Below the pieces are notes generated by a model, which was given only the letters and a program-made list of their open reading frames with translations, did no database searches and was not told where the DNA came from. DNA of 64,000 nucleotides from an uncultured Candidatus Saccharibacteria bacterium. GTDB taxonomy: Bacteria > Patescibacteriota > Minisyncoccia > Minisyncoccales > Staskawiczbacteraceae. A program made the position numbers and the translations under genes. The stretch covers positions 226 through 64,225 of the forward strand of contig CAYOIH010000001.1 in the NCBI GenBank assembly GCA_964404005.1, given 5' to 3'. Below, in pieces: positions 2,706 through 64,000 of this stretch; the stretch's first letter is position 1, and each line of letters begins with the position of its first letter.

Positions 2706-3224
2706 ATGTTAAAACAGCAGATACAAAATTCTACTAAAGAAGCCATGAAAGCTGGAGATCAGTTTTTGGTTGGAACTTTGCGTATGTTGTCGGCTTCTAT
2801 TCTTACAAAGGAAAAAGAAAAGCGATATAAAACTTCCAAAGATCACCCGGATTTTGCAGAAGATAAGTTGCTAAAAGAATCAGAATTAACAGACGAGCAG
2901 ATAATTGAGGTTATATCTTCTGAAATTAAAAAAAGAAAAGACGCCGTTGTTTTATACGAACAGGGCAATAGGCAGGAGCTGGCAGACAAAGAAAAAAAGG
3001 AAATTGAAATTTTAATTAAATATCTGCCCGAGCAATTGTCCGAAGACGAATTAAAAAAAATGGTTGAAGAATCAATTGCAAAAGTTAGGGTCGAAATGAA
3101 GGACCCTTCGACAAGCTCAGGGCAAGTTATGGGGAAAGTAATGGCAGATTTAAATCCAAAGATTAAGGGCAAAGCAGACGGCGGGGAGGTAAGTAAAATT
3201 GTAAAAGAACTATTATCTAAATAA
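2706..3224 (+). CDS. yqeY: GatB/YqeY domain protein
   Basis: YqeY-like N-terminal pattern (LKQQIQNSTKEAMKAGD...LRML), ~150 aa Glu/Lys-rich; contains in-frame family-1 repeat (PSTSSGQ). Confidence 0.65.
   Translation: MLKQQIQNSTKEAMKAGDQFLVGTLRMLSASILTKEKEKRYKTSKDHPDFAEDKLLKESELTDEQIIEVISSEIKKRKDAVVLYEQGNRQELADKEKKEIEILIKYLPEQLSEDELKKMVEESIAKVRVEMKDPSTSSGQVMGKVMADLNPKIKGKADGGEVSKIVKELLSK
3104..3124 (+). repeat. family-1 repeat copy (in yqeY, sense)
   Basis: cccttcgacaagctcagggca. Confidence 0.8.
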
Positions 3225-8615: not shown

Positions 8616-9344
8616 ATGATTATTGCCGGACTGCAGAAAACAACTCTAATTGACTATCCAAAAAAAGTTGCCTGTACTGTTTTTTTGACCGGGTGCAATT
8701 TCAGGTGTCCGTGGTGTTATTCTTCGGAGCTGGTTTTGCCCGCAAAAATTGTAAAACAGCCGAGAATTGAAGAGAAAGATTTTTTTGATTTTTTAAGGAC
8801 AAGGCAGGGTTTATTGGACGGAGTTGTAATTTGTGGGGGAGAGCCGACAATAAATAAAGATCTACCCCAGTTTATAGAAAAAATAAAAAAATTAGGTTAT
8901 CTGGTAAAATTGGATACTAACGGCTCAAACCCGAAAATGCTGAAAGATCTGGTAAATACAAAGTTGGTTGATTATGTTGCAATGGATATTAAAACAAAGG
9001 GAGAGAGTCCAGTTTACCAAAATCTTATGACAGAGGGAATTATAATAGATAATATAAAAGAAAGCGTTGAATTTCTAAAGGCCCATTCGACAGGCTCAGG
9101 GCAAACCTGCGGGTTTGATTTTGAATTTCGCACAACAGTTGTAAATACTATTCACGTAAAAGAAGATTTTTTGGAAATCGCGAAATGGATTGGAGGGCCG
9201 GGTGTTAAATATTATTTACAAAATTTCAGAGCTGAAAAAACAATTGACCCGGAATTTGAAAAAGTAGAACCGTTCAAGCAGGCATTTTTAGAGGAAATAG
9301 TAAAAGAAATTTCTCCTTATTTTGAAGAGTGCAAAGCGAGATGA
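8616..9344 (+). CDS. nrdG: anaerobic ribonucleotide reductase activating protein (radical SAM)
   Basis: CNFRCPWC radical-SAM CxxxCxxC cluster; adjacent to nrdD; carries in-frame family-1 repeat (HSTGSGQ). Confidence 0.8.
   Translation: MIIAGLQKTTLIDYPKKVACTVFLTGCNFRCPWCYSSELVLPAKIVKQPRIEEKDFFDFLRTRQGLLDGVVICGGEPTINKDLPQFIEKIKKLGYLVKLDTNGSNPKMLKDLVNTKLVDYVAMDIKTKGESPVYQNLMTEGIIIDNIKESVEFLKAHSTGSGQTCGFDFEFRTTVVNTIHVKEDFLEIAKWIGGPGVKYYLQNFRAEKTIDPEFEKVEPFKQAFLEEIVKEISPYFEECKAR
9082..9103 (+). repeat. family-1 repeat copy (in nrdG, sense; 1-nt insertion)
   Basis: cccattcgacaggctcagggca. Confidence 0.7.
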
Positions 9345-14014: not shown

Positions 14015-15304
14015 ATGCAGTACAATTTTTCAGCGCCAGACATAAAAGGTATTAAAAATAAAATCGTAAAAGTTATAAAAAACAGAAAACTGTGGGCGGG
14101 AGTGGGCTTGGTTATAATAGGATGCGTGGCAGGTATAGCAGTTTTTCATTATTTCCCGTCTCAAACAGACGCGTTTTTGCAATATTTTCAAATGCCGGCA
14201 ACCCAGATTTCTAAAACTACCGGCCAGCCGACGGCAAACCAGTATGTTTCAAGCGTTTCTTATGAGCAGGCGGTAATTGACGCGGCAAAAAATGTTTCGC
14301 CCTCTGTTGTTAGTATTGTGATTTCAAAAAATGTTCCTGTCTATGAGCAACAATTTGTAAATCCGTTTGGCGAAACATTTCCGGAGTTTAATTTTCAGAT
14401 TCCTCAACAGGTGCAAAACGGAACGAAATACCAGGAAGTCGGAGCCGGCTCAGGTTTTATAGTTTCAGTAGACGGTTTGGTTTTAACAAACAAGCACGTT
14501 GTATCTGACAGTAAAGCAGATTACACCGTTTTTACAAATGACGGACAAAAATATCCGGCAAAAGTTTTGGCGTTAGACCCCGTGCAGGATTTGGCTGTTA
14601 TAAAAATAGAACCGCAAGAAGGAAAAACGTTTCAAGCAGTGACGTTGGGAGATTCTGACGGCGTGCAGATAGGCCAAACGGCAATTGCTATTGGAAACGC
14701 GCTGGGGCAATTTTCCAACACAGTTTCTGTGGGCGTGGTTTCCGGTCTTGAAAGGACAATTTCCGCTTCCGACCAAGTCGGTTCGTTTTTTGAAACATTG
14801 GAAAATATTATTCAGACAGACGCGGCAATTAACGCGGGAAATTCCGGAGGGCCCTTATTAAATCTGAAAGGTGAGGTTATTGGGATTGATACTGCCATGG
14901 CGCAAGGAGCCCAGGATATTGGTTTTGCAATACCGATTAATATGGCAAAAAAAGATATAGAGCAGGTTAAGGCAACAAACAAAATTGTTTACCCGTTTTT
15001 AGGAGTAAGATATGTTCTGGTTGATGACCAAGTAAAACAAAAATATAATTTGTCTGTAGATTACGGGGCTTTGGTTCTAAAAGGAAGCAAGGGAGAGGTG
15101 GCTGTGACTTCGGGGTCTGCGGCAGAAAAAGCCGGCGTAAAAGAAAACGACATTATTTTGGAATTAAACGGGCAAAAGATTACTAAAGACAGTTCTCTTT
15201 CAAACATGCTTTTAAATTATAACCCAGGCGACACGGTTTCCTTAAAAATTTTGCGCGACGGAGAGGAGACGAATATAGACGTTGTGCTGGGCGAGAGGAG
15301 TTAG
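14015..15304 (+). CDS. htrA: HtrA/DegP family serine protease with PDZ domain
   Basis: TNKHVV (His), D, GNSGGPLLN (Ser) catalytic triad motifs; C-terminal PDZ; N-terminal TM. Confidence 0.85.
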   Translation: MQYNFSAPDIKGIKNKIVKVIKNRKLWAGVGLVIIGCVAGIAVFHYFPSQTDAFLQYFQMPATQISKTTGQPTANQYVSSVSYEQAVIDAAKNVSPSVVSIVISKNVPVYEQQFVNPFGETFPEFNFQIPQQVQNGTKYQEVGAGSGFIVSVDGLVLTNKHVVSDSKADYTVFTNDGQKYPAKVLALDPVQDLAVIKIEPQEGKTFQAVTLGDSDGVQIGQTAIAIGNALGQFSNTVSVGVVSGLERTISASDQVGSFFETLENIIQTDAAINAGNSGGPLLNLKGEVIGIDTAMAQGAQDIGFAIPINMAKKDIEQVKATNKIVYPFLGVRYVLVDDQVKQKYNLSVDYGALVLKGSKGEVAVTSGSAAEKAGVKENDIILELNGQKITKDSSLSNMLLNYNPGDTVSLKILRDGEETNIDVVLGERS

Positions 15305-15378
15305 TAAAATTTATATTATAAGCTAAAAAAAGCAGGCTGTTATGATGGTCTGTTTTTTATTTTTGTGGGGACATTGAG

Positions 15379-15405
15379 TTATCACTCTTGACTTGAGAGT
15401 GCTAT
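15379..15405 (+). promoter_or_regulatory. CIRCE-like HrcA operator upstream of clpB
   Basis: TTATCACTC-N9-GAGTGCTAT vs CIRCE consensus TTAGCACTC-N9-GAGTGCTAA (2 mismatches, arms nearly perfectly inverted). Confidence 0.7.
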
Positions 15406-15433
15406 TGATTTATCATAAAGTTTGAGCTAAAAT
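15405..15433 (+). promoter_or_regulatory. sigma70-like promoter abutting CIRCE
   Basis: TTGATT - 17 nt - TAAAAT. Confidence 0.45.
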
Positions 15434-15465
15434 AGAAATATAAAACGTAATAATAATATTGAATC

Positions 15466-15555
15466 ACCCTTCGGCAAGCTCAGGGCGCTTCGACTCCGCA
15501 AATTAAATACTTGCGCTGAGCGGAGCCTGAGTCAGACGAAGGCGGAGTCGAAGCG
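15466..15555 (+). repeat. structured palindromic element in clpB 5' leader built on a family-1 repeat copy; sequesters the SD
   Basis: gcttcgactccgc (15487-15499) is perfectly complementary to gcggagtcgaagc (15542-15554), which overlaps the GGAG SD just before the GTG start at 15555; 5' part ccttcggcaagctcagggc is family-1 consensus. Confidence 0.55.
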
Positions 15556-18281
15556 TGAACGGATCAAATTTTACAAACAAGGCTCAAGATGCGCTGATGC
15601 AAGCCCAACAATTGGCTCAGGAAAAAGGGCAGTCGCAGATTGACGCCTTGCATTTGCTTTATGTGTTGCTTGTGCAAGAAGGCAGTATTATAACTACAAT
15701 TTTACAAAAACTCGGTATAGATGGAGACTCTTTAAATAAAAAAGTTGAGTCTCAAATTGCAAAAATTCCGACAACTTTATCTCCGCAGGCATTCGGGCAG
15801 TTTTATCTTACGCAGGACATGGCAAAAGTTTTAGACCGTGCCAGGCAGGAGGCGATAAAAATGAACGATGAATTTATTTCCGTCGAGCATTTATTTTTAG
15901 CGCTTTTAGATACAAAATCAGGAGCTAAAGATATTTTAGAAAAAATTAACTTTATATCCGGATCTTCCGGAGCAGCGGAAGGAAGCAACCTGAAGAATTC
16001 TAAACTTGATTACGAAGTTGTAATAAAAATTTTGTCGCAGATAAGAGGAGGGCAAAGGATTACAGACCCGGAGCCGGAATCAAAATACCAGGTAATCGAA
16101 AAATATACCAGAAACTTAACCAATTTGGCGTCTGCCGGAAAAATTGATCCGATAATCGGTAGGGATAATGAAATCAGAAGATTGATGCAAATAATTTCCA
16201 GAAGGACAAAAAATAATCCGGTGCTAATTGGAGAAGCCGGAGTCGGAAAAACAGCCATTGTTGAGGGGTTTGCCCAAAGAATTGCCAGGGGGAATGTGCC
16301 CGATTTTTTAAAGAACAAGGAAATAATTTCTTTGGATTTGGGTTCTATAATTGCGGGAACAAAATATCGAGGAGAATTTGAAACAAGAATTAAAGCGTTG
16401 TTAAAAGAGTTGTCACGGGCTGCAGGAAAATATATTTTATTTATTGATGAATTGCATACTTTAGTGGGAGCGGGGGCCGCAGAGGGAGCAATGGACGCTT
16501 CAAATCTTTTAAAGCCCGCATTATCCAGGGGAGAATTAAGAGCAATTGGAGCCACAACCACAAGAGAATATCAAAAATACATTGAACAGGACCCGGCTTT
16601 AGAAAGGAGATTTCAGCCGATTTATGTTCAAGAACCTAATGTGGAAGATGCCACCGCGATTTTGCGTGGAATTAAAGAAAAATATGAAGTCCATCATGGA
16701 GTGAAAATAAAAGATTCTGCTATTAAGGCCGCTGTTGAATTGGCAAGCAGATACATTGCCGACAGATTTTTGCCGGACAAAGCGGTTGATTTGATGGACG
16801 AGGCGGCTTCTGCTTTAAGGTTGGAAATTGAATCTGACCCGCAGGAATTGGAAAAATTTGACGAGGCGATTATGAAGCTTGAAATTGAAAAACAAGCGTT
16901 GCGACCCAGAGGGTACCCCGAGCAAGGCTCTGAAAGAAGGCTAAGAGTAATTGCCAGAGAGCTGGCGGATTTAAATGAAAAAACGAAATCATTGAGATTG
17001 AAATGGGGAGCTGAAAAGGAATTGATAAATAAAATAAAAGATATCAGGGAAAAACTGGACAATCTTTCCTACCAGACGGAAATTGCCCAAAGAGATGCGG
17101 ATTTGGAAAAAGTAGCTGAAATAAAATACGGGAAGATTCCGGAGTTATTGAAAGAACAGGCCGCGACAGAGCAAAAACTGATAAAAATACAAAAAGAGCA
17201 TAGATTTTTGAAGGAAGAAGTTACAGAAGAAGAGGTTGCCAAGGTTGTTTCCCGCTGGACCGGAATTCCGGTAATGCGTTTGATTACAGAAGAAGCGAAA
17301 AAATTAGAGACGATGGAAGACACCCTAAACAGGCGGGTAATCGGCCAGCAGGAAGCAATTTCAGCAATCTCAAGGGCTATCCGCAGGGCGAGAGCAGGAA
17401 TATCAGAGGAAGACAAGCCATTGGGCTCATTCCTGTTTTTGGGTCCCACCGGAGTTGGAAAAACGGAAACAGCTAGAGCCTTGGCGGAGTTTTTATTTGA
17501 TGATGAGAAAGCTATGATAAGGCTGGATATGTCAGAATATATGGAACGCCATACAGTTTCAAAAATTATAGGTTCCCCTCCAGGTTATGTTGGTTATGAA
17601 GAAGCCGGCCAACTGACAGAAAAAGTCAGAAGAAGACCGTATTCTGTTTTGCTGTTGGACGAAGTTGAAAAAGCTCACCCCGATGTTTTTAACATTTTAT
17701 TGCAGATTTTTGAAGACGGAAGATTAACAGACTCAAGGGGAAGAGTGGTGTCATTTAAAAATACAATTATTATAATGACTTCTAACTTGGGTTCAGATTA
17801 CATAAACAAAATGTCGTCTATCGGATTTAACACCAGAGAAGAATTGGTTCAAAGAGAATCAATGCGGGAAAAAATATTTGATTCTCTGCGCGACGCATTC
17901 AGGCCGGAGTTTTTGAACAGAATTGATGAAGTTGTGATATTCAATTATTTGCAGAAAGCGCAAATAAAAACGATCGTTGACTTAGAGTTATCCAAGGTTG
18001 AAAAGCGCTTGGCCTCAAAAGAAATTAAAATTGAGATTTCAGAAAAAGCCAAAGAATTTTTGGTAAAAGAAGGCTTTGATCCTAACTTGGGTGCGCGTCC
18101 CCTAAAAAGAGTAATTCAGCGTTTAATTTTAGATCCATTATCTATAAAAATCGTTACCAACGAAATTACAGAGGGTTCACGAATTTTAATCGACGAGAAA
18201 GACGGCAAGATGGTTTTTGAGGTGCCGCGGCAACTGCCCAGAATGAGGTCGGCGCCAAGATTGGCAAAAATAAAAAAATAA
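15555..18281 (+). CDS. clpB: ATP-dependent chaperone ClpB
   Basis: two AAA+ modules (GEAGVGKTA Walker A; GPTGVGKTE second Walker A), coiled-coil M-domain, ~908 aa; GTG start. Confidence 0.9.
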   Translation: MNGSNFTNKAQDALMQAQQLAQEKGQSQIDALHLLYVLLVQEGSIITTILQKLGIDGDSLNKKVESQIAKIPTTLSPQAFGQFYLTQDMAKVLDRARQEAIKMNDEFISVEHLFLALLDTKSGAKDILEKINFISGSSGAAEGSNLKNSKLDYEVVIKILSQIRGGQRITDPEPESKYQVIEKYTRNLTNLASAGKIDPIIGRDNEIRRLMQIISRRTKNNPVLIGEAGVGKTAIVEGFAQRIARGNVPDFLKNKEIISLDLGSIIAGTKYRGEFETRIKALLKELSRAAGKYILFIDELHTLVGAGAAEGAMDASNLLKPALSRGELRAIGATTTREYQKYIEQDPALERRFQPIYVQEPNVEDATAILRGIKEKYEVHHGVKIKDSAIKAAVELASRYIADRFLPDKAVDLMDEAASALRLEIESDPQELEKFDEAIMKLEIEKQALRPRGYPEQGSERRLRVIARELADLNEKTKSLRLKWGAEKELINKIKDIREKLDNLSYQTEIAQRDADLEKVAEIKYGKIPELLKEQAATEQKLIKIQKEHRFLKEEVTEEEVAKVVSRWTGIPVMRLITEEAKKLETMEDTLNRRVIGQQEAISAISRAIRRARAGISEEDKPLGSFLFLGPTGVGKTETARALAEFLFDDEKAMIRLDMSEYMERHTVSKIIGSPPGYVGYEEAGQLTEKVRRRPYSVLLLDEVEKAHPDVFNILLQIFEDGRLTDSRGRVVSFKNTIIIMTSNLGSDYINKMSSIGFNTREELVQRESMREKIFDSLRDAFRPEFLNRIDEVVIFNYLQKAQIKTIVDLELSKVEKRLASKEIKIEISEKAKEFLVKEGFDPNLGARPLKRVIQRLILDPLSIKIVTNEITEGSRILIDEKDGKMVFEVPRQLPRMRSAPRLAKIKK

Positions 18282-20589: not shown

Positions 20590-21654
20590 ATGGATTTAGG
20601 TAATTTAGAAAAAGTTTTGGAAAATGAGCCGGAGTATCGCTTAAAACAGGCGAGAGAAGCGGTTTATAAAAATTTTATCTCTGATTGGTCAGAGGCAACT
20701 TTTTTTACAAAAGATTTACGAGATAAGTTAAATAAAGAATGTCCGCTAAAAATTGAGGCAGATGTTTTAATTTCAAAAAAAGAAGACAGCGTAAAAGCTA
20801 GGATTACCCTAAAAGACGGATTAAAAATTGAAGCTGTTTTAATGCGTCATAAAGATGGCAGGAATACCGTTTGCGTTTCTTCGCAGGTTGGATGCCCTTT
20901 GGGATGCCTTTTTTGTGCCACAGGAAAAATGGGTTTTAAAAGAAATTTAACTTCTGATGAAATTTTAGAGCAGGTGATATTTTTTAGTCGGTATCTAAAA
21001 AATATCACCCTGAGCGAAGTCGAAGGGTCATCCATGCGTGTGACTAATGTCACTTATATGGGAATGGGAGAGCCGTTTTTGAATTATGAAAATGTTTTAA
21101 AATCTATAAGAATTTTAAATAATAAAGACTTTTTTAATATCGGGGCCCGGTCAATTTCTGTTTCAACAGCTGGGATTATTGAGGGTATAAAAAAGTTTAG
21201 CGAAGAAGGTTTACAGCTAAATCTGGCGATTTCTCTACATGCGTCGAACAACGAACTCAGAAAATCTTTAATGCCAATAAGTAAAAAATATTCATTGGAA
21301 GATGTTTTAAGGGCAGTTGATGAATATATTGAGAAAACTAAAAGAAAAGTGATGTTTGAGTATGTTTTAATTGACGGCGTTAACGACTCTGAAGAACACG
21401 CTCAAGAGCTAGCAAAATTAATGCGCAACCCTTCGACTTCGCTCAGGGCAAGGAAATTATATTTTTTAAACTTAATTCTTTACAACGCAACCCCGCCTTC
21501 TTCGGGGCAAGCAGAAATATTTAAGCCTTCAAAAACAAAAAACGTTGAAAAGTTTAAATCTATTTTAGAAAAAAACAAGGTTAATTTTGTTCAGCGTTAC
21601 AGGTTTGGTGATGACATAAACGCGGCTTGTGGGCAATTTGTCACCAATAAATAA
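20590..21654 (+). CDS. rlmN: 23S rRNA/tRNA adenine-C2 methyltransferase RlmN (radical SAM)
   Basis: VCVSSQVGCPLGCLFCATG radical-SAM cluster, MGMGEPFLNYENV; contains two family-1 repeat copies in opposite orientation. Confidence 0.8.
   Translation: MDLGNLEKVLENEPEYRLKQAREAVYKNFISDWSEATFFTKDLRDKLNKECPLKIEADVLISKKEDSVKARITLKDGLKIEAVLMRHKDGRNTVCVSSQVGCPLGCLFCATGKMGFKRNLTSDEILEQVIFFSRYLKNITLSEVEGSSMRVTNVTYMGMGEPFLNYENVLKSIRILNNKDFFNIGARSISVSTAGIIEGIKKFSEEGLQLNLAISLHASNNELRKSLMPISKKYSLEDVLRAVDEYIEKTKRKVMFEYVLIDGVNDSEEHAQELAKLMRNPSTSLRARKLYFLNLILYNATPPSSGQAEIFKPSKTKNVEKFKSILEKNKVNFVQRYRFGDDINAACGQFVTNK
21006..21027 (-). repeat. family-1 repeat copy (in rlmN, antisense)
   Basis: revcomp = cccttcgacttcgctcagggtg. 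Confidence 0.8.
21429..21453 (+). repeat. family-1 repeat copy (in rlmN, sense)
   Basis: cccttcgacttcgctcagggcaagg. Confidence 0.8.
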
Positions 21655-21757: not shown

Positions 21758-21871
21758 CCCCGTTAGAGATCATTAGGGGTAGGGTTTAGTTATTTTTAAA
21801 TATTGCGAATCAGTTTTGGATCGTAAAGACGTTTTTTAAATTTTTTTGTGGGCAATAAATCTCTAACGGGG
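21758..21871. repeat. family-2 inverted-repeat element (13-nt perfect TIRs, 88-nt spacer)
   Basis: ccccgttagagat (21758-21770) ... atctctaacgggg (21859-21871). Confidence 0.55.
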
Positions 21872-21906: not shown

Positions 21907-22632
21907 ATGCAAGATAAATTTCTAAACCCCGTTAGAAAGGCCGAGTTATCTGGACAAGATAATGTTTTTGGAAATAATGAGAAAGAAATACAACATGGAC
22001 AATCATTTTTAGAAATTTCTAAAAAAGAAATTTCTAAAAACAGGCTTTCTAACGGGGTAAAACTAACAAACACAGTTTATAAAGTGCTTGAGTTTTTTCC
22101 GGAATCAGATCCGTTAAAAAACAGGGCAAAAGATCGGGTGTTATCCATAATGGAGTATCTGACACTGATTGATAAAGGCAGTAATGATTCTGTAATTAAA
22201 ACTCATATTTCAGAAGATATAGATGTGCTTTTGGGCTATCTTTGGATAGGCAAATCGCAGGGTTGGTTAAACTCGTCTAACTGCCTTATAATCTCTAATG
22301 AATATGAAAAAATAACCCTTCAGCTTCGTTCAGGGCAGGAAAAAGAAATAGAACCGGCGATACCCGACAAAAGTCCCGCCGTTGCGGGACAATTTGACGG
22401 GCCCGCCATAATCTCGCCAATGGCGAGTTTGGGCGGGGAGCAGTTAGGCACTCGGCAGAAAAAAATTCTTGAATTTTTAGGTAAAAATGAAAAAGCGCAG
22501 GTTATGGATTTACGGGCGATATTGTCGGATGTCACAAAGAGAACCATAAGAAGGGATTTAGACGAATTACTTGAAGCCGGTAAAATAGTAAGATTGGGGG
22601 AGTTTAATCAAGTTTTTTACAAGACTAAGTGA
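21907..22632 (+). CDS. hypothetical protein with C-terminal winged-helix/DeoR-like HTH; N-terminal ~50 codons overlap a family-2 IR element so true start uncertain
   Basis: C-terminus QKKILEFLGKNEKAQVMDLRAILSDVTKRTIRRDLDELLEAGKIV is DeoR-N/HTH-like; carries family-1 copy (LQLRSGQ). Confidence 0.4.
   Translation: MQDKFLNPVRKAELSGQDNVFGNNEKEIQHGQSFLEISKKEISKNRLSNGVKLTNTVYKVLEFFPESDPLKNRAKDRVLSIMEYLTLIDKGSNDSVIKTHISEDIDVLLGYLWIGKSQGWLNSSNCLIISNEYEKITLQLRSGQEKEIEPAIPDKSPAVAGQFDGPAIISPMASLGGEQLGTRQKKILEFLGKNEKAQVMDLRAILSDVTKRTIRRDLDELLEAGKIVRLGEFNQVFYKTK
21927..22058. repeat. family-2 inverted-repeat element (13-nt perfect TIRs, 106-nt spacer)
   Basis: ccccgttagaaag (21927-21939) ... ctttctaacgggg (22046-22058). 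Confidence 0.55.
22317..22339 (+). repeat. family-1 repeat copy (in HTH ORF)
   Basis: ccttcagcttcgttcagggcagg. Confidence 0.75.
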
Positions 22633-23306: not shown

Positions 23307-23342
23307 TCTACAGATTCCCGGAGTCTGTAATTGCTCAAGGCT

Positions 23343-23353
23343 TCTAACGGGGT
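23343..23353. repeat. solo half-site of family-2 element
   Basis: ttctaacgggg without partner within 300 nt. Confidence 0.35.
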
Positions 23354-23397: not shown

Positions 23398-24159
23398 ATG
23401 ACAAAAATAACACAAAAAAAACTTATAGAGTCGTTGTCGCAACTCAAAGAAATAAAACCCAGGAAAGAATGGGCTGTTTTGCTTAAGTCGCAAATCTTGG
23501 CTTCGCCCGCCGAAGCTTTAGCGCAGGAGGGCAGAAAAGCATTGGTTCAAAAAACCAGTATTTTAGATATTTTCTCTTCGGTGTTCTTCCCCTTCGGCGG
23601 GCTCAGGGCAGGCAGAAAATTGGCATATGCTTTTTCAGTCATTCTTTTGTTTGTTGTAGGGGTTTTTGGGTTTGCTGAATATACAGTTCCCGGGGACATG
23701 CTATTCCCGATGAAAAAAATTGCCGAGCAGTCGCAGGCAGCTTTGACAGGACAAACCAAATTAAATCAAGACGTCGCAACGCTAAATAGCAGAATAAACG
23801 ATTTGGCCCAAGTTGCAAAAGCAGGGAGAAAAGACAACATTCCTTCGGCAATAAGTGAGGTTTCAGCAAACGCATCACAGTTGGCAAAAAGCTTAAAAGA
23901 TAATCCTGTAAACGACCCGCAGACACTTAAAGAAATTGCGATTAGTTTAAAAACATTAGCCGACGTACAGGGAACTGACTTAACCGCTACGCCTGGCATA
24001 AGCGACCTTTATCAGACATTAGACCAAAACGAGATTAACGATTACCAAAAAACAACTTTAACAGAAGACCAGCAGAATATATTGGCTGAAGCAGAAGATT
24101 TATACAGTCAGGGGAAATATTATGAAGCGTTCGAAAAAATATTAACAATAGGTAATTAA
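23398..24159 (+). CDS. putative membrane-anchored anti-sigma factor (by position downstream of ECF sigma)
   Basis: single TM (YAFSVILLFVVGVFGFA) after a short cytoplasmic N-domain; carries family-1 copy (FPFGGLRAG). Confidence 0.35.
   Translation: MTKITQKKLIESLSQLKEIKPRKEWAVLLKSQILASPAEALAQEGRKALVQKTSILDIFSSVFFPFGGLRAGRKLAYAFSVILLFVVGVFGFAEYTVPGDMLFPMKKIAEQSQAALTGQTKLNQDVATLNSRINDLAQVAKAGRKDNIPSAISEVSANASQLAKSLKDNPVNDPQTLKEIAISLKTLADVQGTDLTATPGISDLYQTLDQNEINDYQKTTLTEDQQNILAEAEDLYSQGKYYEAFEKILTIGN
23591..23613 (+). repeat. family-1 repeat copy (in putative anti-sigma gene)
   Basis: ccttcggcgggctcagggcaggc. Confidence 0.8.
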
Positions 24160-24217
24160 AATTATAACTGACTCGGCAAGAAACTCGTACTTTTTTGCCG
24201 ATTATTAAAAAAATAAC

Positions 24218-24357
24218 ATTTGACGAGTCGTTTGTTCGTGATTAGTACGCTCGCCCCGTTAGAAATCTGCGGTAAAAACCGCGAATTTCTAACGGGGTAA
24301 ATCGCGAGCTATAGATAAATTAAATATTTGACGAGTCGTTTGTTCGTGATTAGTACG
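24218..24357 (+). repeat. 32-nt perfect direct repeat (24218-24249 / 24326-24357) flanking a family-2 IR element (24254-24296)
   Basis: atttgacgagtcgtttgttcgtgattagtacg x2; between them ccccgttagaaat-ctgcggtaaaaaccgcga-atttctaacgggg. Confidence 0.65.
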
Positions 24358-26990: not shown

Positions 26991-29307
26991 AAATCAGTGT
27001 AGATAGAAAGCTATCTATCTGGTCTTCCAGCTCAGGATTTGATTTAATAACTTCCGAAGCAATTTGTCTGGCCATGTTATAATTTCCTAATTCTTTGTAA
27101 ATAAGCATTATAGAAGTTTTGTATTGTATTTGTGAGCCGTTTATTACAAATAGTTTTTGATACAGGGGAAGCATTTCTTTATAGTTTTTGGTTTCCAAAT
27201 AAGCAGCCACCAGTTGCCTTAAAGAAATTTCATTTTCAACAGAATATCCGTCTTCTTTTGCTTTTTCTACAAATTCTTTTCCCGTTTTAACATCTCCCAA
27301 ATAAATATTAATTAATCCGGACATCCATAGGCAATCGCGGATTTTTGGGAATGTTTTTAAACAATAAACAGATTTTTCCTTTGCTCCCTTTAAATCTCCA
27401 AAAGAGACGTCAGCCATAAAAAAACTAAAAAGAATTGAGGGGTCTCTGGGGCTTAGTTCCATAGCCCTCTTAAAAGCTTCGTCGGACTTTTTTATAATTT
27501 CCGGGTCTTTGTTTTCTTTTGCGATTGTTGCCAGAGATTCTCCCAAGCGTAACCAATTTCTGTAGTCATATGGTTGTAATATTGTATTCTCTCCGGAAAT
27601 TTCTTTAACTTTTTGTGAAACAGAGCTATTTTCTTCGGGATGCGCAATAATCCTGTCTATTAGCAAATTTAAATAAACAGAATTGGCATAGGGGAGGAAA
27701 AAGGTGTTTATTTTGGACTGTTCATCCATAATTTTTATAGTATCTTTCCAGTTTTTCGATGATTCTGCCCGCGCAATAACAATTTGTTTATTCATTTGTA
27801 GAGGAATAAGATTATATTGCCATAAGAATATTATTAATATCAAAAATAAAATGACTATTATTATTGGTTTCCACCAGGTACTGTTTTTAGGTTCAGCGTT
27901 TTTCAGCGCCGTTATCAGCGTAGCATCAGCATTATTCAATGAAATTAAATGCAGTGAATAAGCAGATAAAAAGAAAAAAATAAGCATAATAGCAGCGCCG
28001 TCAATGGACGCCAAGCCAGCTATAAAAAAAGCTATGAATCCCGCTTGTAGTCCATGGGCAACCGGGTATTTTTTCTTGATTTTTTGGAGGCCCCATAATA
28101 ATGAAAGGAAAAAAACAAGGTAAAAAATTAAAGCAAAAATTCCGGAATCAACCAAAATTTGTATTAAATAATTATGCGCCCTGTCAAAATCTTTTATGTC
28201 TTCCATTGCAGGCAAATTGGGGTCATAGTGTTTGTTGAAAGCAACGTAAAAGTTTTCCGGCCCATATCCAAAATATGGCTTTTCAAAAAAAGCCGATATC
28301 GATATTTTCCAGGCAGATATTCTTGACGGGTCAACTGCAGCGCCTGTTGTCAGCGATGCTGTCCGGCCGACAGTGTCTTTTATTAAGTTGGGCATCCCTG
28401 CATAAATTTGAGGGTTGGCACTTAAAAAGAAAAGAAAAAAAATAAATACCATTGGTAAAACTACGGCACTTATTTTTAACCACTTAAATTTTTTAGGACT
28501 CGCCCCGTTAGAGATTACATTATCTCTAGCGGGGTAAAAAATTAAAAAACAAAAAAGTCCAACCAACATGCCTAAAATAGCAGCTCTTGTTTGGGTTATA
28601 AAAATAATTACAAAAGAATAAAAAATAACAAGGAACAAATAAGAGTATTTTTTTACTTTATTTGCTTCTGATATAAAAAATGATAAAGAAAGAAAAAGAA
28701 GCGGTAAAAGGTAAAGAGCAAGAATTATTGGATTTCCCAATGTTGAGCTTGGCCTGTAAGTTGTTACGGCCAGAAATGATGCAAAAAATCCAAATTGCTG
28801 AAGGACAGCTATTAACCCTACCAAAAATCCGATAATCAATGAAAAATCAAGCAGTTTTTTCCAGCTTGCCTCGCCCGTTGGCGGGTCTTCTTTTTTTATA
28901 ATTGAAAAACAGAAGATGCAGAAAAGGATAAAAAACGAAAAATTAATAAATCCGGCGCCTCTTTCTGGGGTTCCCCATAAACTACGGGAAACATCCAGGG
29001 AAAATAATGTTGAAATAAAAACCGCGAAGAAATATGCCAAAAGCGAAATTAACGGAAGAAAGGTTTTCGTGTGCGGATTAAAAACTTCTTTAAAATTTAC
29101 CTGCCCTGAGCCGTGCCGAAGGGTTTTTTCTTTAACCAAATAAATAAAACCCAAAACCGCCAATAGCGACCTAAAAACAATGGCCTGTGTGTATGCCGAG
29201 GGAGTAAACCATGGCGGAACATTTAAAGCCGGCAAGGCTAATATTATAAAGAACCCAGCTATATATAACCAGTAAAAATTGTTACTTTTTTCGTTGATTT
29301 TAGCCAT
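26980..29307 (-). CDS. Wzy_C/O-antigen-ligase-family membrane protein with C-terminal TPR repeats (possible protein O-oligosaccharyltransferase)
   Basis: ~12 TM helices, ITQTRAAILGMLVGL Wzy_C motif, C-terminal TPR-like helical repeats; contains in-frame family-1 (TLRHGSGQ) and family-2 (PARDNVISNG) repeats. Confidence 0.6.
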   Translation of the reverse strand: MAKINEKSNNFYWLYIAGFFIILALPALNVPPWFTPSAYTQAIVFRSLLAVLGFIYLVKEKTLRHGSGQVNFKEVFNPHTKTFLPLISLLAYFFAVFISTLFSLDVSRSLWGTPERGAGFINFSFFILFCIFCFSIIKKEDPPTGEASWKKLLDFSLIIGFLVGLIAVLQQFGFFASFLAVTTYRPSSTLGNPIILALYLLPLLFLSLSFFISEANKVKKYSYLFLVIFYSFVIIFITQTRAAILGMLVGLFCFLIFYPARDNVISNGASPKKFKWLKISAVVLPMVFIFFLFFLSANPQIYAGMPNLIKDTVGRTASLTTGAAVDPSRISAWKISISAFFEKPYFGYGPENFYVAFNKHYDPNLPAMEDIKDFDRAHNYLIQILVDSGIFALIFYLVFFLSLLWGLQKIKKKYPVAHGLQAGFIAFFIAGLASIDGAAIMLIFFFLSAYSLHLISLNNADATLITALKNAEPKNSTWWKPIIIVILFLILIIFLWQYNLIPLQMNKQIVIARAESSKNWKDTIKIMDEQSKINTFFLPYANSVYLNLLIDRIIAHPEENSSVSQKVKEISGENTILQPYDYRNWLRLGESLATIAKENKDPEIIKKSDEAFKRAMELSPRDPSILFSFFMADVSFGDLKGAKEKSVYCLKTFPKIRDCLWMSGLINIYLGDVKTGKEFVEKAKEDGYSVENEISLRQLVAAYLETKNYKEMLPLYQKLFVINGSQIQYKTSIMLIYKELGNYNMARQIASEVIKSNPELEDQIDSFLSTLIYAD
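28503..28534. repeat. family-2 inverted-repeat element, 6-nt spacer, in-frame inside Wzy_C gene
   Basis: ccccgttagagat tacatt atctctagcgggg (1 mismatch). Confidence 0.55.
29101..29122 (-). repeat. family-1 repeat copy (in Wzy_C gene, sense to that minus-strand gene)
   Basis: revcomp = ccttcggcacggctcagggcag. Confidence 0.8.
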
Positions 29308-30127: not shown

Positions 30128-30871
30128 ATGCAATCAAATAAAAAAGTGGGAATTTTGGGATATGGTGAAATCGGCCAGGCAATTGCCAAGTTTTACAAAA
30201 ACCCGAAGATTAAAGATTTAAAAAGGGATGAAGGCCTTGAAGGTATCGAAATTTTGCATATTTGTATCCCCTGGTCAGATAAATTTGTAGAAATTGTAAA
30301 AAAACAGATAAAAGAAACAAATCCAAGGCTTACAATCATCCATTCTACCGTGGCCCCCGGAACCACAAGGAAGATTATCAATGGCTTGCCCCGAGCTTGT
30401 CGAGGGGTTGTCCATAGTCCTGTAAGGGGCATACACCCGAAGTTATATGAGGGAATAAAAACGTTTGTAAAATATATCGGCGCCGATGACAAAAAAGCCG
30501 GGCAAATGGCAAAAAAACATTTTAAAAGTTTAGGGATAAAAACAAAAACTTTTTATCCGACAACCACCACAGAATTAGGAAAAATTTTAGATACTACCTA
30601 TTACGGTGTTTGTATCGCCTGGCACGGCGAAATGAAAGAGATATGCGATAAGTTCGGCGTTGATTTTGAAAGTGCAGTGACAGATTTTAATAAAACTTAT
30701 AATGAGGGGTACACAAAGCTTGGGAAAAAGAATGTTGTAAGGCCAGTTTTATATCCGCCTCAAAATGGTAAACCAAAACACTGCATCATCCCAAACGCTG
30801 AAATTCTCAGCCGATACTACAAAACGCCGATTTTCGAATTATTATTGAAGAAGTATAAAAACAAACTTTAA
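30128..30871 (+). CDS. Rossmann-fold NAD(P)-binding dehydrogenase-like protein (nucleotide-sugar dehydrogenase N-domain-like)
   Basis: VGILGYGEIGQAIA dinucleotide fold; HSTVAPGTT resembles UDP-sugar dehydrogenase N-domain; only 247 aa. Confidence 0.3.
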   Translation: MQSNKKVGILGYGEIGQAIAKFYKNPKIKDLKRDEGLEGIEILHICIPWSDKFVEIVKKQIKETNPRLTIIHSTVAPGTTRKIINGLPRACRGVVHSPVRGIHPKLYEGIKTFVKYIGADDKKAGQMAKKHFKSLGIKTKTFYPTTTTELGKILDTTYYGVCIAWHGEMKEICDKFGVDFESAVTDFNKTYNEGYTKLGKKNVVRPVLYPPQNGKPKHCIIPNAEILSRYYKTPIFELLLKKYKNKL

Positions 30872-52668: not shown

Positions 52669-52745
52669 CCCCGTTAGAAATTTTACTAAATGGGGATAAT
52701 AAAATAAAGATAATTAGTATGAAAAAACCTGCTATTTCTAACGGG
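52669..52745. repeat. family-2 inverted-repeat element spanning the RBS and start codon of the PglC-like gene
   Basis: ccccgttagaaat (52669-52681) ... atttctaacgggg (52733-52745); the second arm encodes ISNG of the protein N-terminus. Confidence 0.55.
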
Positions 52746-53336
52746 GTAAAAAGATTGTTTGATATAATTTTTTCTGCGATAGGGTTGGTAATTACTTTTC
52801 CAATATTTTTATATGTGGTTTTTTTGATTAAAAGGGAATCGCCCGGGCCGATTTTTTATCGAGCACAAAGGATTGGTAAAAATAGAAAAGCTTTTGTAAT
52901 GTATAAATTTAGGACAATGGTTGTTGGCGCCGATAAAATTGGGGGACCATCAACCGCCGCCGACGACCCCAGGCTTACAAAAATCGGCTTATTTCTAAAG
53001 AAGTACCAACTTGATGAATTGCCCCAACTTATAAACGTTTTTAAAGGCGATATGAGTTTTGTGGGACCAAGGCCAGAAGTGAAGATATACGTTGATATGA
53101 TGACAGAAGAGGAAAAAAATGTTATCTTATCGGTACGTCCCGGTATTACAGACTTGGCATCATTATGGAACTTTCACGAGGCAGAAATATTAAAAGGAAG
53201 CACAGACCCGGAGAAAACATATATGGAGGAAATAAGACCCGAAAAGTTAAGACTCCAGCAAGAATATGTAAAAAAATCTTCTATTTGGCTGGACATTAAA
53301 ATAATTTGGCAGACGGTTTTAAAGGTATTTAAATAA
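52719..53336 (+). CDS. small initiating phosphoglycosyltransferase (bacterial sugar transferase, PglC/WbaP-C-terminal type)
   Basis: KRLFDIIFSAIGLV (re-entrant helix), PGPIFYRAQRIGKNRKAFVMYKFRTM, DELPQLINVFKGDMSFVGPRP. Confidence 0.8.
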   Translation: MKKPAISNGVKRLFDIIFSAIGLVITFPIFLYVVFLIKRESPGPIFYRAQRIGKNRKAFVMYKFRTMVVGADKIGGPSTAADDPRLTKIGLFLKKYQLDELPQLINVFKGDMSFVGPRPEVKIYVDMMTEEEKNVILSVRPGITDLASLWNFHEAEILKGSTDPEKTYMEEIRPEKLRLQQEYVKKSSIWLDIKIIWQTVLKVFK

Positions 53337-59376: not shown

Positions 59377-61101
59377 ATGGAATTTTTCAGCTACAAAAAA
59401 ATAATTTTTTTGGCCGGGGTTTTATTGTTTTTGGCTGTTGGCAATGCTAGAGCCGCTAATGTAGGAGAGGTCGTTAATTTTAATGTAGATAAAAGTTTTG
59501 ATATTAACAGCAGAACAAAACTGTCGGCCACTTTGATAAAAACAAGCGATAAACTGTATTTTTATGTAGATAAATCGTGGTGGGAACAGCAGACGCAGGC
59601 AAAACAAACAGAAGCTTTAACCGGCTTAGATAATTTATCTAATGAGTTTAATAATAATATTTATCCGACCATGACCTCTGTTTTTGGCTCGGAGTGGAAA
59701 CCGGGCATAGACAACGACCCCAGAATTACAGTTTTATTTGAACCAATAAACAGCTCAGAGGGAGGATATTTTAGAGAGGCAGACGAATATGAAAAACTCC
59801 AAGTGCCAACCTCCAATGAAAGGGAAATGCTTTATTTGTCTGTTTCGAGCATTAATGACCCAAATGCAAAAATAGTTTTAGGCCACGAGTTCACCCATTT
59901 AATAACTTTTAACCAAAAAAATAAAATTTATGGAGCAGAAGAAGATACGTGGTTAAATGAGGCAAGGGCAGACTATTCTTCAACTATTTTAGGATACGAC
60001 GATGTTTATAACGGCAGTAATTTGCAACAGAGGGTTAAAGATTTTACAGAAAATCCTTCCGACTCCATAACCGATTGGACCGGTACAAAATATGATTACG
60101 CCAGCGTAAGCCTATTTATGCACTATTTGGTTGATCGGTATAGCGTGAATATTTTATCTAATTCTTTAAGGTCTCAATCAGTTGGCATAGAAAGTATAAG
60201 CCAGACCCTGGCGAAGCCGGCGTCTAAAGAAAATTTTTCACAAATTTTTACTAATTGGACAATAGCTTTGGCAATTAATGACTGTTCTCAAAATTTAAAA
60301 TATTGCTACTCTAATCAAAATCTTAAAGACCTGAGAATAAACCCAACGCTTATTTTTATGCCGTTAACGGGCAGTAGTTCTTTGTCTACAACAAACATAA
60401 CTAAAAATTGGGCAGGTAATTGGCAAAAAATTATTGGGGGAAGCGGAAATTTAAAATTAGATTTTTCCGGTTTGACCGGGCTTGATTTTCAATTACCGTA
60501 TATACTTTACGACAAAGACAATAATTATTCGGTAAAATTTTTAACGCTTGACCAGGAAGAGAAAGGAGAAATCAGTGTTCAAAACTTCGGAACAGATTAT
60601 AAATCCCTGATTATTATCCCTTCTTTACAGACAAAGCTTTCCGAGTTTGATGGCTTAGACCTTACTTACCCATACAGTTTTACGGTTTCTGTCGCGGAAA
60701 AAGATTTGGGAACAGACGACACATTAATACAAAAACTTTTGGCTCAGATAGCCTCTCTAAAAAAGCAAATAGCAGATCTTATCGCCAAAAACCCTTCGGC
60801 AGGCTCAGGGCAGGCAAGTCAAAACAATAGCTGTTCGCAACTAACAACTAATCTTTATTTTGGACTAATTAATAGTAGCCAGGTGACGTGTCTGCAACAA
60901 TTTTTGAAAAATCAAGGGACAAACATTTATCCCGAGGGTTTGGTAACCGGATATTTTGGAAATTTAACAAAGTCTGCCGTGATAAAATTTCAGGAGAAAT
61001 ACGCATCTGAAATTTTAACACCTATAGGGCTTTCGCAGGGAACCGGTTATGTGGGAGCACAAACAAGAGCGAAAATTAACCAAATAATGAGCGGTGTTTA
61101 A
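59377..61101 (+). CDS. secreted protein with HExxH (putative zinc metallopeptidase) and C-terminal peptidoglycan-binding-like domain
   Basis: signal peptide; VLGHEFTHL ... NEARADY (gluzincin-like spacing); C-terminal LQQFLKNQG...GYFGNLTKSAVIKFQEKY; carries family-1 copy (PSAGSGQ). Confidence 0.35.
   Translation: MEFFSYKKIIFLAGVLLFLAVGNARAANVGEVVNFNVDKSFDINSRTKLSATLIKTSDKLYFYVDKSWWEQQTQAKQTEALTGLDNLSNEFNNNIYPTMTSVFGSEWKPGIDNDPRITVLFEPINSSEGGYFREADEYEKLQVPTSNEREMLYLSVSSINDPNAKIVLGHEFTHLITFNQKNKIYGAEEDTWLNEARADYSSTILGYDDVYNGSNLQQRVKDFTENPSDSITDWTGTKYDYASVSLFMHYLVDRYSVNILSNSLRSQSVGIESISQTLAKPASKENFSQIFTNWTIALAINDCSQNLKYCYSNQNLKDLRINPTLIFMPLTGSSSLSTTNITKNWAGNWQKIIGGSGNLKLDFSGLTGLDFQLPYILYDKDNNYSVKFLTLDQEEKGEISVQNFGTDYKSLIIIPSLQTKLSEFDGLDLTYPYSFTVSVAEKDLGTDDTLIQKLLAQIASLKKQIADLIAKNPSAGSGQASQNNSCSQLTTNLYFGLINSSQVTCLQQFLKNQGTNIYPEGLVTGYFGNLTKSAVIKFQEKYASEILTPIGLSQGTGYVGAQTRAKINQIMSGV
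60793..60815 (+). repeat. family-1 repeat copy (in HExxH protein gene)
   Basis: ccttcggcaggctcagggcaggc. Confidence 0.8.
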
Positions 61102-63168: not shown

Positions 63169-64000
63169 ATGTCAATTTTATCTAAGATTTTTGGGGACCC
63201 TAATGAAAAGTTTATAAAGGGGCTCCATCCCATTATTGAGAAAATAAATTCTTTTGAGTCGGAATTTGAAAAATTTTCTGCGGAGCAGTTAAAAGAAAAA
63301 ACCCTTCAACTTCGTTCAGGGCTGGCAAAAGGTAAAACGCTTGACGATATTATGCCTGAGGCTTTTGCGTTGGTGCGCGAAGTGTCAAAAAGAACTTTGA
63401 ATCAACGCCATTTTGATGTGCAGTTGATCGGCGGAATTGTTTTACACCAGGGCAAAATTGCTGAAATGAAAACAGGAGAAGGAAAAACTTTGGCGGCTAC
63501 GCTTCCTGCCTACCTGAACGCGTTGGAAGGAAAAGGAGTGCACATTGTTACAGTGAACGATTATCTGGCAAAAAGGGATATGGTTTGGATGGGGCAGATT
63601 TACGATGCTTTAGGATTATCTACGGGTTGCATTGTAAACGAATCCGGCTACGTTTACGACAGGGAATATAAAAATACTGAGGAGGATAAGGCTCGCGATA
63701 CAGTGGGCAGTTTTAAGGTAATCCAGGATTATTTGAAACCGGTTTCAAGAAAAGAGGCGTATGCCGCGGACATTACTTATGGAACTAACAATGAATTCGG
63801 TTTTGATTATTTAAGGGACAATATGGTTTTTGACTTGTCCCAGCAAGTCCAGCGGGGACACAATTTTGTTGTTGTTGATGAAGTAGACTCAATTTTAATT
63901 GATGAGGCGCGGGTTCCTTTAATAATTTCCGGCGAAGTGCAGGAAACAACGGAAAAATATTATACTTTTGCAAAAGTTGCAGCCCAGTTGGAAAATGGCC
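63169..64000 (+). CDS. secA: preprotein translocase ATPase SecA (5' part, runs off window)
   Basis: [67 protein letters not shown]; carries family-1 copy (LQLRSGLA). Confidence 0.9.
63303..63326 (+). repeat. family-1 repeat copy (in secA)
   Basis: ccttcaacttcgttcagggctggc. Confidence 0.75.

Follow-up and report, generated by a model that had tools for sequence, protein, structure and literature searches.

The 64,000-nt stretch of contig CAYOIH010000001.1 analyzed here (assembly GCA_964404005.1; hereafter the window) carries the heat-shock gene clpB behind a control region that probably combines two pieces of different origin: a conserved heat-shock control module, in which an inverted repeat of the CIRCE type (controlling inverted repeat of chaperone expression) is interlocked with the promoter, and a GC-rich palindrome that was inserted later and is no thermometer. 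The CIRCE-type operator and its promoter are real and conserved and, judging from their retention in orthologous promoters, most likely functional; the palindrome, also real, is best understood from sequence comparison as one member of a dispersed, modular repeat family that came to lie on the start codon of clpB. A preliminary description of the same DNA had proposed dual heat-shock control, transcriptional through the repressor HrcA and translational through a thermometer- or riboswitch-like leader; the first half is supported by a footprint over 13 promoters, whereas the second is not borne out by the analyses described below.

The CIRCE-like site (TTATCACTCTTGACTTGAGAGTGCTAT) departs from the consensus TTAGCACTC-N9-GAGTGCTAA at two positions, as had been described, and it is the only match at up to three mismatches in the window, none being found in 100 shuffles. 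The adjoining TTGATT-17-TAAAAT promoter was likewise recovered (P2, Table 1); the single base that it shares with CIRCE is the first T of its -35 box and the last base of the inverted repeat, and the transcription start that it implies lies at about 15440. A further candidate promoter (P1), absent from the earlier description, scores above P2 in the promoter scan; its -35 box sits inside the spacer of CIRCE, whose right arm falls between the two promoter boxes. The comparison set consisted of 80 clpB loci from species-representative genomes and further loci reached through close ClpB proteins (loci are designated L001 and so forth), and the TTGACT box with a TAnnnT box 17 nt downstream is found in seven of them (L002, L004, L005, L027, L028, L038 and L174). 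In 13 of the 79 loci with enough upstream sequence, a CIRCE with up to three mismatches precedes the start of clpB by 73-282 nt, and none is found elsewhere in these 79 loci. The orthologous sites carry 0-3 mismatches, L019 having a perfect TTAGCACTC-N9-GAGTGCTAA, and the inverted repeat is joined to a TTGAT -35 box in the 13 clpB promoters. In their alignment (A1), the arms TTA(T/G)CACTC and GAGTGCTA and the TTGAT that follows are invariant or nearly so, while the CIRCE spacer is variable, the sequence upstream of the operator cannot be aligned and the flanks are unconserved. Since arms and -35 box are conserved and the flanks are not, the pattern is read as a phylogenetic footprint, left by a site that a protein binds and that is interlocked with a promoter. 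Many sister lineages have lost the operator and retained the promoter: the TTGATTT...CTAAAAT of P2 is kept in the CIRCE-less relatives L006, L008-L014, L171, L176 and L177, and the leader box ATAAAACGTA is likewise kept in relatives without the inverted repeat. A subclade formed by L015, L021 and L024 has a variant operator, TTAGCAC-N13-CTGCTAA, about 85-97 nt upstream of clpB, which keeps the outer CIRCE halves, has other letters in place of the inner GAG in the right arm, and overlaps a TTGCAC -35 box and its spacer.

Downstream of this module, the GC-rich inserted block is 89 nt long (15467-15555) and has the order A-B-loop-A'-B' (Table 1). The stem that had been described as 13 nt long and lying over a GGAG before the GTG start does cover the GGAG, and it is 14 nt long: the perfect inverted repeat CGCTTCGACTCCGC / GCGGAGTCGAAGCG takes in the G of GTG, so that both the GGAG (15544-15547, 7 nt ahead of the GTG at 15555) and the first base of the start codon are within it. 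When the region was dinucleotide-shuffled 300 times, inverted repeats reached 12 nt at most. The alternative pairing of ccttcg (15468-15473) with cgaagg is also real, the latter lying at 15537-15542, one base from its earlier placement, and it forms part of an imperfect repeat (15461-15484 / 15526-15549) that is 71% complementary. Because the modules follow one another as A-B-A'-B' without spacers, the A:A' and B:B' helices must be mutually exclusive or knotted. A second GCGGAG in the loop (15520-15525) is able to pair with the CTCCGC of arm B. Transcription from within the element and a leaderless mRNA were both considered and rejected, the promoter scan giving no plus-strand candidate.

The preliminary description had recognized a dispersed repeat in the leader, and this holds but was understated: the whole palindrome, beyond its first 19 nt, is one unit of a dispersed family. 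The 19-nt 'family-1' word CCTTCGGCAAGCTCAGGGC has six copies in the window at up to three mismatches (none expected), besides variants, and the 20-nt A module occurs at least nine times, nearly always inside open reading frames (ORFs) and in frame, where it reads P-S-T/A-S/G-S-G-Q (e.g., P-S-T-S-S-G-Q); the YqeY protein (2706-3224) has seven extra residues at the module when compared with the B. subtilis structure (PDB 1ng6). A metagenome scan for the A'B' half, with the pattern CCYGAG-N4-ACGARGG-N1-2-GAGTCGAA, returned 88 stretches (L081-L168) on contigs of 35-73% GC, evidently from different phyla. On low-GC contigs resembling those of the candidate phyla radiation (CPR), the full unit abuts the GTG of clpB in L091, L135 (= L052), L146 and L159, and in L132 the same A-B-loop-A'-B' unit abuts the GTG of an mreC-like gene that is followed by a membrane protein gene. 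In other organisms, the unit is found directly 3' of the tmRNA gene in L083 (268-294) and of tRNA genes in L082 (1097-1123), L096 (3570-3595) and L145 (3443-3468). The copy at L036, a close relative of the window, is 91% identical to the mreC-linked copy of L132 and only 82% identical to that of the window; given that it is nearer to the mreC-linked copy, sequence conservation is a property of the family and not of the clpB site. The GGAG appears to have arrived with the repeat, since GGAGTCGAA is the most frequent family variant. Neither Rfam nor the literature searched gave a name for the family; in the literature, its DNA words and typical peptides gave unrelated matches only. One of the metagenome contigs (L120, 38% GC) has a group I intron (1099-1311; 67 bits in Rfam) some 90 nt upstream of a repeat copy.

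The distribution of the block among relatives points to insertion. Conservation of the stem in the clpB leaders of close relatives had been set beforehand as a test, and the stem is absent from nearly all of them, L036 excepted: most pass from the conserved leader through 19-55 AT-rich nucleotides straight into ATGAAYGG, those at 85-92% ClpB identity going directly from the ATAAAACGTAATA leader to ATG, and of some 40 loci whose ClpB is at least 80% identical, only L036 shares the 89-nt block. In L036 (ClpB about 91% identical), the block is preceded by a flanking ATTGAAT that looks like a displaced ancestral start, the window GCGGAGTCGAAGCG is replaced by GCGAGTCGAA and the GGAG is lost. Vertical inheritance of the insert from an ancestor of the window and L036 was examined; the ClpB identities form a star, and L036 ClpB is nearer to that of the block-less L004, L006 and L171 than to the window ClpB. 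TGAAY stands on both flanks of the element in the window and L036, and not in L052, L091, L132, L146 or L159; the arms follow the A-B-A'-B' order and are not terminal inverted repeats, and no consistent target duplication was seen.

In L007, L016, L048 and L171-173, the start codon of clpB is occupied by a different element, whose termini are CCCCGTTAGAAGTC...GACTTCTAACGGGG, clpB then starting with GTG in L007, L016 and L171-173 and keeping ATG in L048; unrelated leaders longer than 100 nt are present in L001, L003, L008, L029, L037 and L054. With such varied inserts at the same spot, the clpB start is a recurrent landing or tolerance site. Two unrelated element families have been inserted there in different lineages, each making a GTG start, which hints that these elements may have a preferred target. 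Besides the repeat family of the block, another small palindromic element is abundant; it has ends CCCCGTTAGAA...TTCTAACGGGG and a variable interior, and was noted in loci L007, L016, L048, L076 and L171-L173, where it lies on the relatives' clpB start codon at two slightly different positions, and in the window at 21758-21871, 21927-22057, 23342-23353, 24254-24297, 28503-28540 and 52669-52747; some of the window copies overlap gene starts (21907, 52719), and an intergenic CCCCGTTAGAA hairpin is flanked by a 35-nt direct repeat that is 97% identical (24215-24249 / 24323-24357). The 5' end of clpB (roughly its first 24 nt) is duplicated in L004 (about 2510-2603) and L091 (5167-5365), the copy following a promoter or repeat element and being separated by an insert of about 80-180 nt from a second, intact ATG start.

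When the presumed transcript is folded, the minimum free energy structure (z = -2.9 relative to shuffles) has the B:B' stem as its core. The opening with temperature that a thermometer would show, for which the preliminary description had suggested a folding check, was not predicted: the stem stays closed, with a probability of at most 0.11 that the GGAG is unpaired, throughout 10-80 °C. At 37 °C, opening the stretch from -12 to +15 about the start is predicted to cost 10.7 kcal/mol for the window and 8.3 kcal/mol for L036, compared with 1.0-5.3 kcal/mol for four relatives without the insert, and this cost declines with temperature at an equal rate in all six. When arm B is blocked, the alternative fold is predicted to be only about 6 kcal/mol less stable, so kinetic alternatives exist. 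Over the seven composite leaders, 94% of the alignment cells at B:B' and A:A' can pair and one double change was seen in 23 pairs, the same as in shuffled controls, in a test of low power given that the 3' half of the element was fixed by the search pattern. Additionally, a word resembling a Shine-Dalgarno (SD) sequence, even as a 4-mer, is present within 22 nt upstream of only 6 of 52 window genes, the upstream regions being AT-rich, and the clpB leaders of relatives have none, which suggests SD-independent initiation in this organism. In a genome so nearly devoid of SD sequences, 'SD sequestration' is a weak argument and no meaningful control point. Rfam returned nothing relevant, either for the whole window at gathering score or for 15300-15650 at E values up to 10. 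The thermometer or riboswitch reading fails these largely predictive tests.

Taken together, the following sequence of events is proposed. A dimeric repressor of the HrcA type would bind the CIRCE inverted repeat, which is interlocked with the two overlapping sigma-70-like promoters P1 and P2, and thereby block RNA polymerase; upon heat shock the repressor would become inactive and clpB would be transcribed from about 15423-15440. Later, the 89-nt repeat would have been inserted exactly at the clpB start codon, its B' arm providing the G of the new GTG start and an accidental GGAG, while the ancestral start would persist upstream as TTGAAT. The B:B' stem is predicted to bury the initiation region, with an opening cost about 5-10 kcal/mol above that of relatives, and because of this raised cost the insert probably lowers ClpB translation constitutively; it may also affect mRNA stability. 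Initiation may proceed through co-transcriptional folding into the alternative A:A' fold or, less surely, ribosomes loading at the relic TTG (15459) might unwind arm B.

Several points concerning the insert weigh against this account. The 80% identity of the window and L036 elements stands beside 44% at the fourfold degenerate sites of clpB; three clades of ClpB (window/L036, L052/L091 and L146/L159) have copies on the start codon of the gene; and four of the five distinct low-GC composite copies of the metagenome scan are at clpB, so that recurrence there could mean a selected function rather than neutral insertion. Moreover, so strong a stem over the start of an intact conserved gene calls for an opening mechanism, a hypothetical one here, and the folding results are thermodynamic predictions throughout. 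These points bear on the idea that the palindrome has been exapted as a translational switch atop HrcA, in which the B:B' mask would be lifted by heat, a helicase, a ligand or the A:A' fold. Besides the position of the start codon and GGAG inside the stem and the small stability difference of the fold without B:B', it can be argued for this switch that the sister loci L146 and L159 (82% ClpB identity) both retain the element, that the element of the window and L036 has outlasted saturation of the synonymous sites, and that B:B' stays intact in L036, where one G-C pair has become A-U and one pair has been lost by a matched deletion. Nevertheless, we consider it unlikely: the element is missing from most close relatives, melting is not predicted in the physiological range and the temperature slope is that of the controls, covariation does not exceed that of shuffles, the copy at the mreC-like gene is no less similar than those at clpB, and SD use is almost lacking in the genome. 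The arm B is deleted in L052 and decayed in L146, and in L091 a further insert cuts the element off from the true ATG.

A different way of exposing the start would be through the ribosome itself, by loading at the relic TTG (15459) and translating a short upstream ORF (uORF) across A and B, which would melt the stem and allow initiation or re-initiation at the GTG. The window and L036 have both kept the TTGAAT relic and the conserved AT-rich leader, the uORF of the window (15459-15506) spans A and B, the L036 relic TTG opens a 33-codon frame that crosses the whole element and stops at a GTGTGA overlapping the clpB GTG, and initiation without SD is the norm in this genome. On the other hand, the window and L036 do not agree in the length of the uORF or the position of its stop, L052, L091 and L132 have nothing comparable, and the uORFs of L146 and L159 begin inside the GC-rich part; a conserved leader peptide or uORF coupling was not found among the seven composite leaders, TTG is a weak start codon and the idea itself is reached by inference. 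It is held to be quite unlikely, and insertion of a repeat that lowers translation is retained as the preferred reading.

As a broader and doubtful extension of this insertion, the family could be a cross-phylum one of structured mobile palindromic modules that, in SD-less CPR bacteria, land or survive preferentially at translation starts (clpB in three clades, an mreC-like gene), donating GTG and GGAG and leaving a gated initiation region that ribosomes or a helicase would have to open; in other phyla, its members are located at the 3' ends of tRNA and tmRNA genes. If this were true, the clpB leader would be one case of a general and undescribed route by which selfish repeats rewrite the 5' ends of genes.

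For the operator, the points on the other side concern the repressor and the position of the site. HrcA is presumed to be the operator-binding protein and its binding to repress the promoters, as deduced from the sequence of the site; in Mollicutes, clpB is known to be under HrcA-CIRCE control (PMC5138195). An hrcA gene was not found in about 84 kb of the genome (the window and 10 kb beyond each end): HrcA is not among the 30 window ORFs scanned with Pfam nor among the genes called within 10 kb beyond either end, and tblastn and phmmer searches with a B. subtilis HrcA sequence gave no match in the window, the fetched loci or the ORFs. The other usual carriers of CIRCE, groESL and dnaK, are likewise absent from the window and the fetched loci. 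A consensus N-terminal HrcA query against a protein database returned short fragments only, the few named ones being from Firmicutes or unclassified bacteria, and no paper connecting HrcA or CIRCE with CPR bacteria was present in the literature searched. Furthermore, the operator lies at or upstream of the P2 -35 box, unlike the classic Bacillus placement at the transcription start. The repeat might instead be a hairpin for termination or attenuation, or be bound by another regulator that is specific to CPR bacteria; the scan marks CACTCTTGACTTGAGAGTG together with CTATTGATTT as terminator-like, and the failure to find hrcA or an HrcA literature for CPR bacteria would fit. This seems very unlikely, since a proper terminator is already present 20 nt upstream (15327-15358), the T-run is the -35 box, the spacer that would be part of the terminator stem varies while the arms are constant, and the conserved letters are exactly the CIRCE consensus, perfect in L019. 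The putative operator extends a known kind of regulation to a CPR lineage, with HrcA as the presumed repressor.

The clpB gene itself was identified from its Pfam domains (Clp_N, AAA, AAA_lid_9, AAA_2 and ClpB_D2-small, with two AAA modules), and its product shares 75-92% identity with ClpB of metagenome-assembled genomes of Candidatus Staskawiczbacteria (Parcubacteria, CPR); the window sequence is matched by the Joint Genome Institute metagenome contig Ga0268278_1000096, and locus L169 is identical to it. The GTG is aligned with the ATG of relatives (N-terminus MNG.NFTNKAQ). Over codons 2-14, the window and L036 differ by four synonymous changes and one replacement; since the differences are mostly synonymous, the first 14 codons appear to be translated, with a start at or before the GTG despite the stem, and ClpB is, by this comparison, still produced and under purifying selection in that segment. 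The deposited ClpB of the window and of several relatives (P0001, P0048 and others with 98% coverage) begins at Met15 (15597), 14 residues short, gene callers passing over the GTG or, in certain relatives, an ordinary ATG; this mis-start in public gene calls matters for annotation, and because of it the window ClpB with V or M as its first residue had no exact database match. N-terminally truncated ClpB calls were tried as a marker of leader inserts and failed, the leaders of L174-L177 being short and ordinary. The 5' neighbor of clpB is an htrA-like protease gene, and the terminator-like hairpin that follows it sets the transcription of clpB apart from that of htrA. The features of the region and the A module copies of the window are collected in Table 1.

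Table 1. Positions of the features of the clpB control region, its surroundings and the A module copies in the window.
Feature	Position	Strand	Remarks
htrA-like protease gene, 5' neighbor of clpB	14015-15304		Pfam Trypsin_2 and PDZ
Terminator-like hairpin and T-run 3' of the htrA-like gene	15327-15358	+	14-pair stem, T tail
CIRCE-like operator TTATCACTC-N9-GAGTGCTAT	15379-15405	.	presumed HrcA binding site
Candidate promoter P1, TTGACT, 17 nt, TATCAT	15388-15416	+	10/12 matches; -35 15388-15393, -10 15411-15416
Candidate promoter P2, TTGATT, 17 nt, TAAAAT	15405-15433	+	9/12 matches; -35 15405-15410, -10 15428-15433
AT-rich 5' leader ATAAAACGTAATA...	15440-15458	+	conserved; ancestral short leader common to relatives
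Ancestral start-region relic TTGAAT	15459-15506	+	opens 15-codon uORF (TTG...TAA); also in L036; translation hypothetical
Module A ('family-1' module) CCCTTCGGCAAGCTCAGGGC	15467-15486	+	part of inserted repeat
Arm B CGCTTCGACTCCGC	15486-15499	+	5' strand of 14-bp perfect stem
Loop with small internal hairpin and truncated inverted A module GCGCTGAGC	15500-15525	+	
Module A' CCTGAGTCAGACGAAGG	15526-15542	+	inverted copy of module A
Arm B' GCGGAGTCGAAGCG	15542-15555	+	3' stem strand; holds GGAG and first base of start codon
clpB	15555-18281	+	908 codons; GTG start created at repeat-element junction
A module CCCTTCGRCARGCTCAGGGC and variant CCCTTCRNCTTCGYTCAGGGC	3104-3123, 9083-9102, 23590-23609, 60792-60811	+	
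A module copies	29122 region, 30388-30406	-	
A module variants	21420-21458, 22307-22345, 63293-63331		

To our knowledge, almost nothing is known about gene regulation in CPR bacteria (Patescibacteria). The conserved CIRCE of clpB suggests that a classical HrcA circuit that includes clpB operates in Staskawiczbacteria, as in the similarly reduced Mollicutes. Caution is advised with leader hairpins: in these genomes, a GC-rich one more likely represents an abundant small repeat than a dedicated riboregulator.

Among known systems, the dnaK and groE operons of Bacillus subtilis are the paradigm of HrcA-CIRCE control, and the window site resembles theirs in its 9-bp inverted repeat with a 9-nt spacer, its match to TTAGCACTC-N9-GAGTGCTAA, its location in a chaperone-gene promoter and its conservation in orthologous promoters. 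In the HrcA-CIRCE regulon of Mollicutes, CIRCE is found on clpB, lon and dnaK, and functional mycoplasma sites have at most two mismatches, a limit within which the window site falls (PMC5138195). It differs in that the operator overlaps or precedes the -35 box instead of lying at or after the transcription start, in that the repressor is a presumed one, and in belonging to a CPR lineage (Staskawiczbacteria), many sister lineages of which have the promoter without the operator.

RNA thermometers such as ROSE (repression of heat shock gene expression) and fourU elements have short imperfect stems that melt at about 30-42 °C and are conserved in orthologues. The window leader is similar to them in being a 5' hairpin of a heat-shock gene that masks an SD-like GGAG and the start codon. 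Unlike them, its stem consists of 14 perfect GC-rich pairs, is predicted to be closed up to 80 °C and is missing in most relatives, in a genome that barely uses SD sequences, and it has no Rfam match.

Small dispersed palindromic repeats located in or near genes include the RPE (Rickettsia palindromic elements), the enterobacterial ERIC/IRU (enterobacterial repetitive intergenic consensus/intergenic repeat units), the Correia elements of Neisseria and the REP (repetitive extragenic palindromic) sequences. The present family shares with them short GC-rich palindromic units in many copies, a presence that varies at orthologous sites, co-transcription with neighboring genes and the ability to alter mRNA structure and, with RPE in particular, in-frame insertion in protein-coding genes (YqeY). 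It is set apart by the A-B-A'-B' order of its arms, which form neither a simple hairpin nor terminal inverted repeats, by showing no consistent target duplication, by a 3' half that is recognizable over contigs of 35-73% GC, and by composite copies that sit precisely on start codons and donate the GTG, as at clpB and the mreC-like gene.

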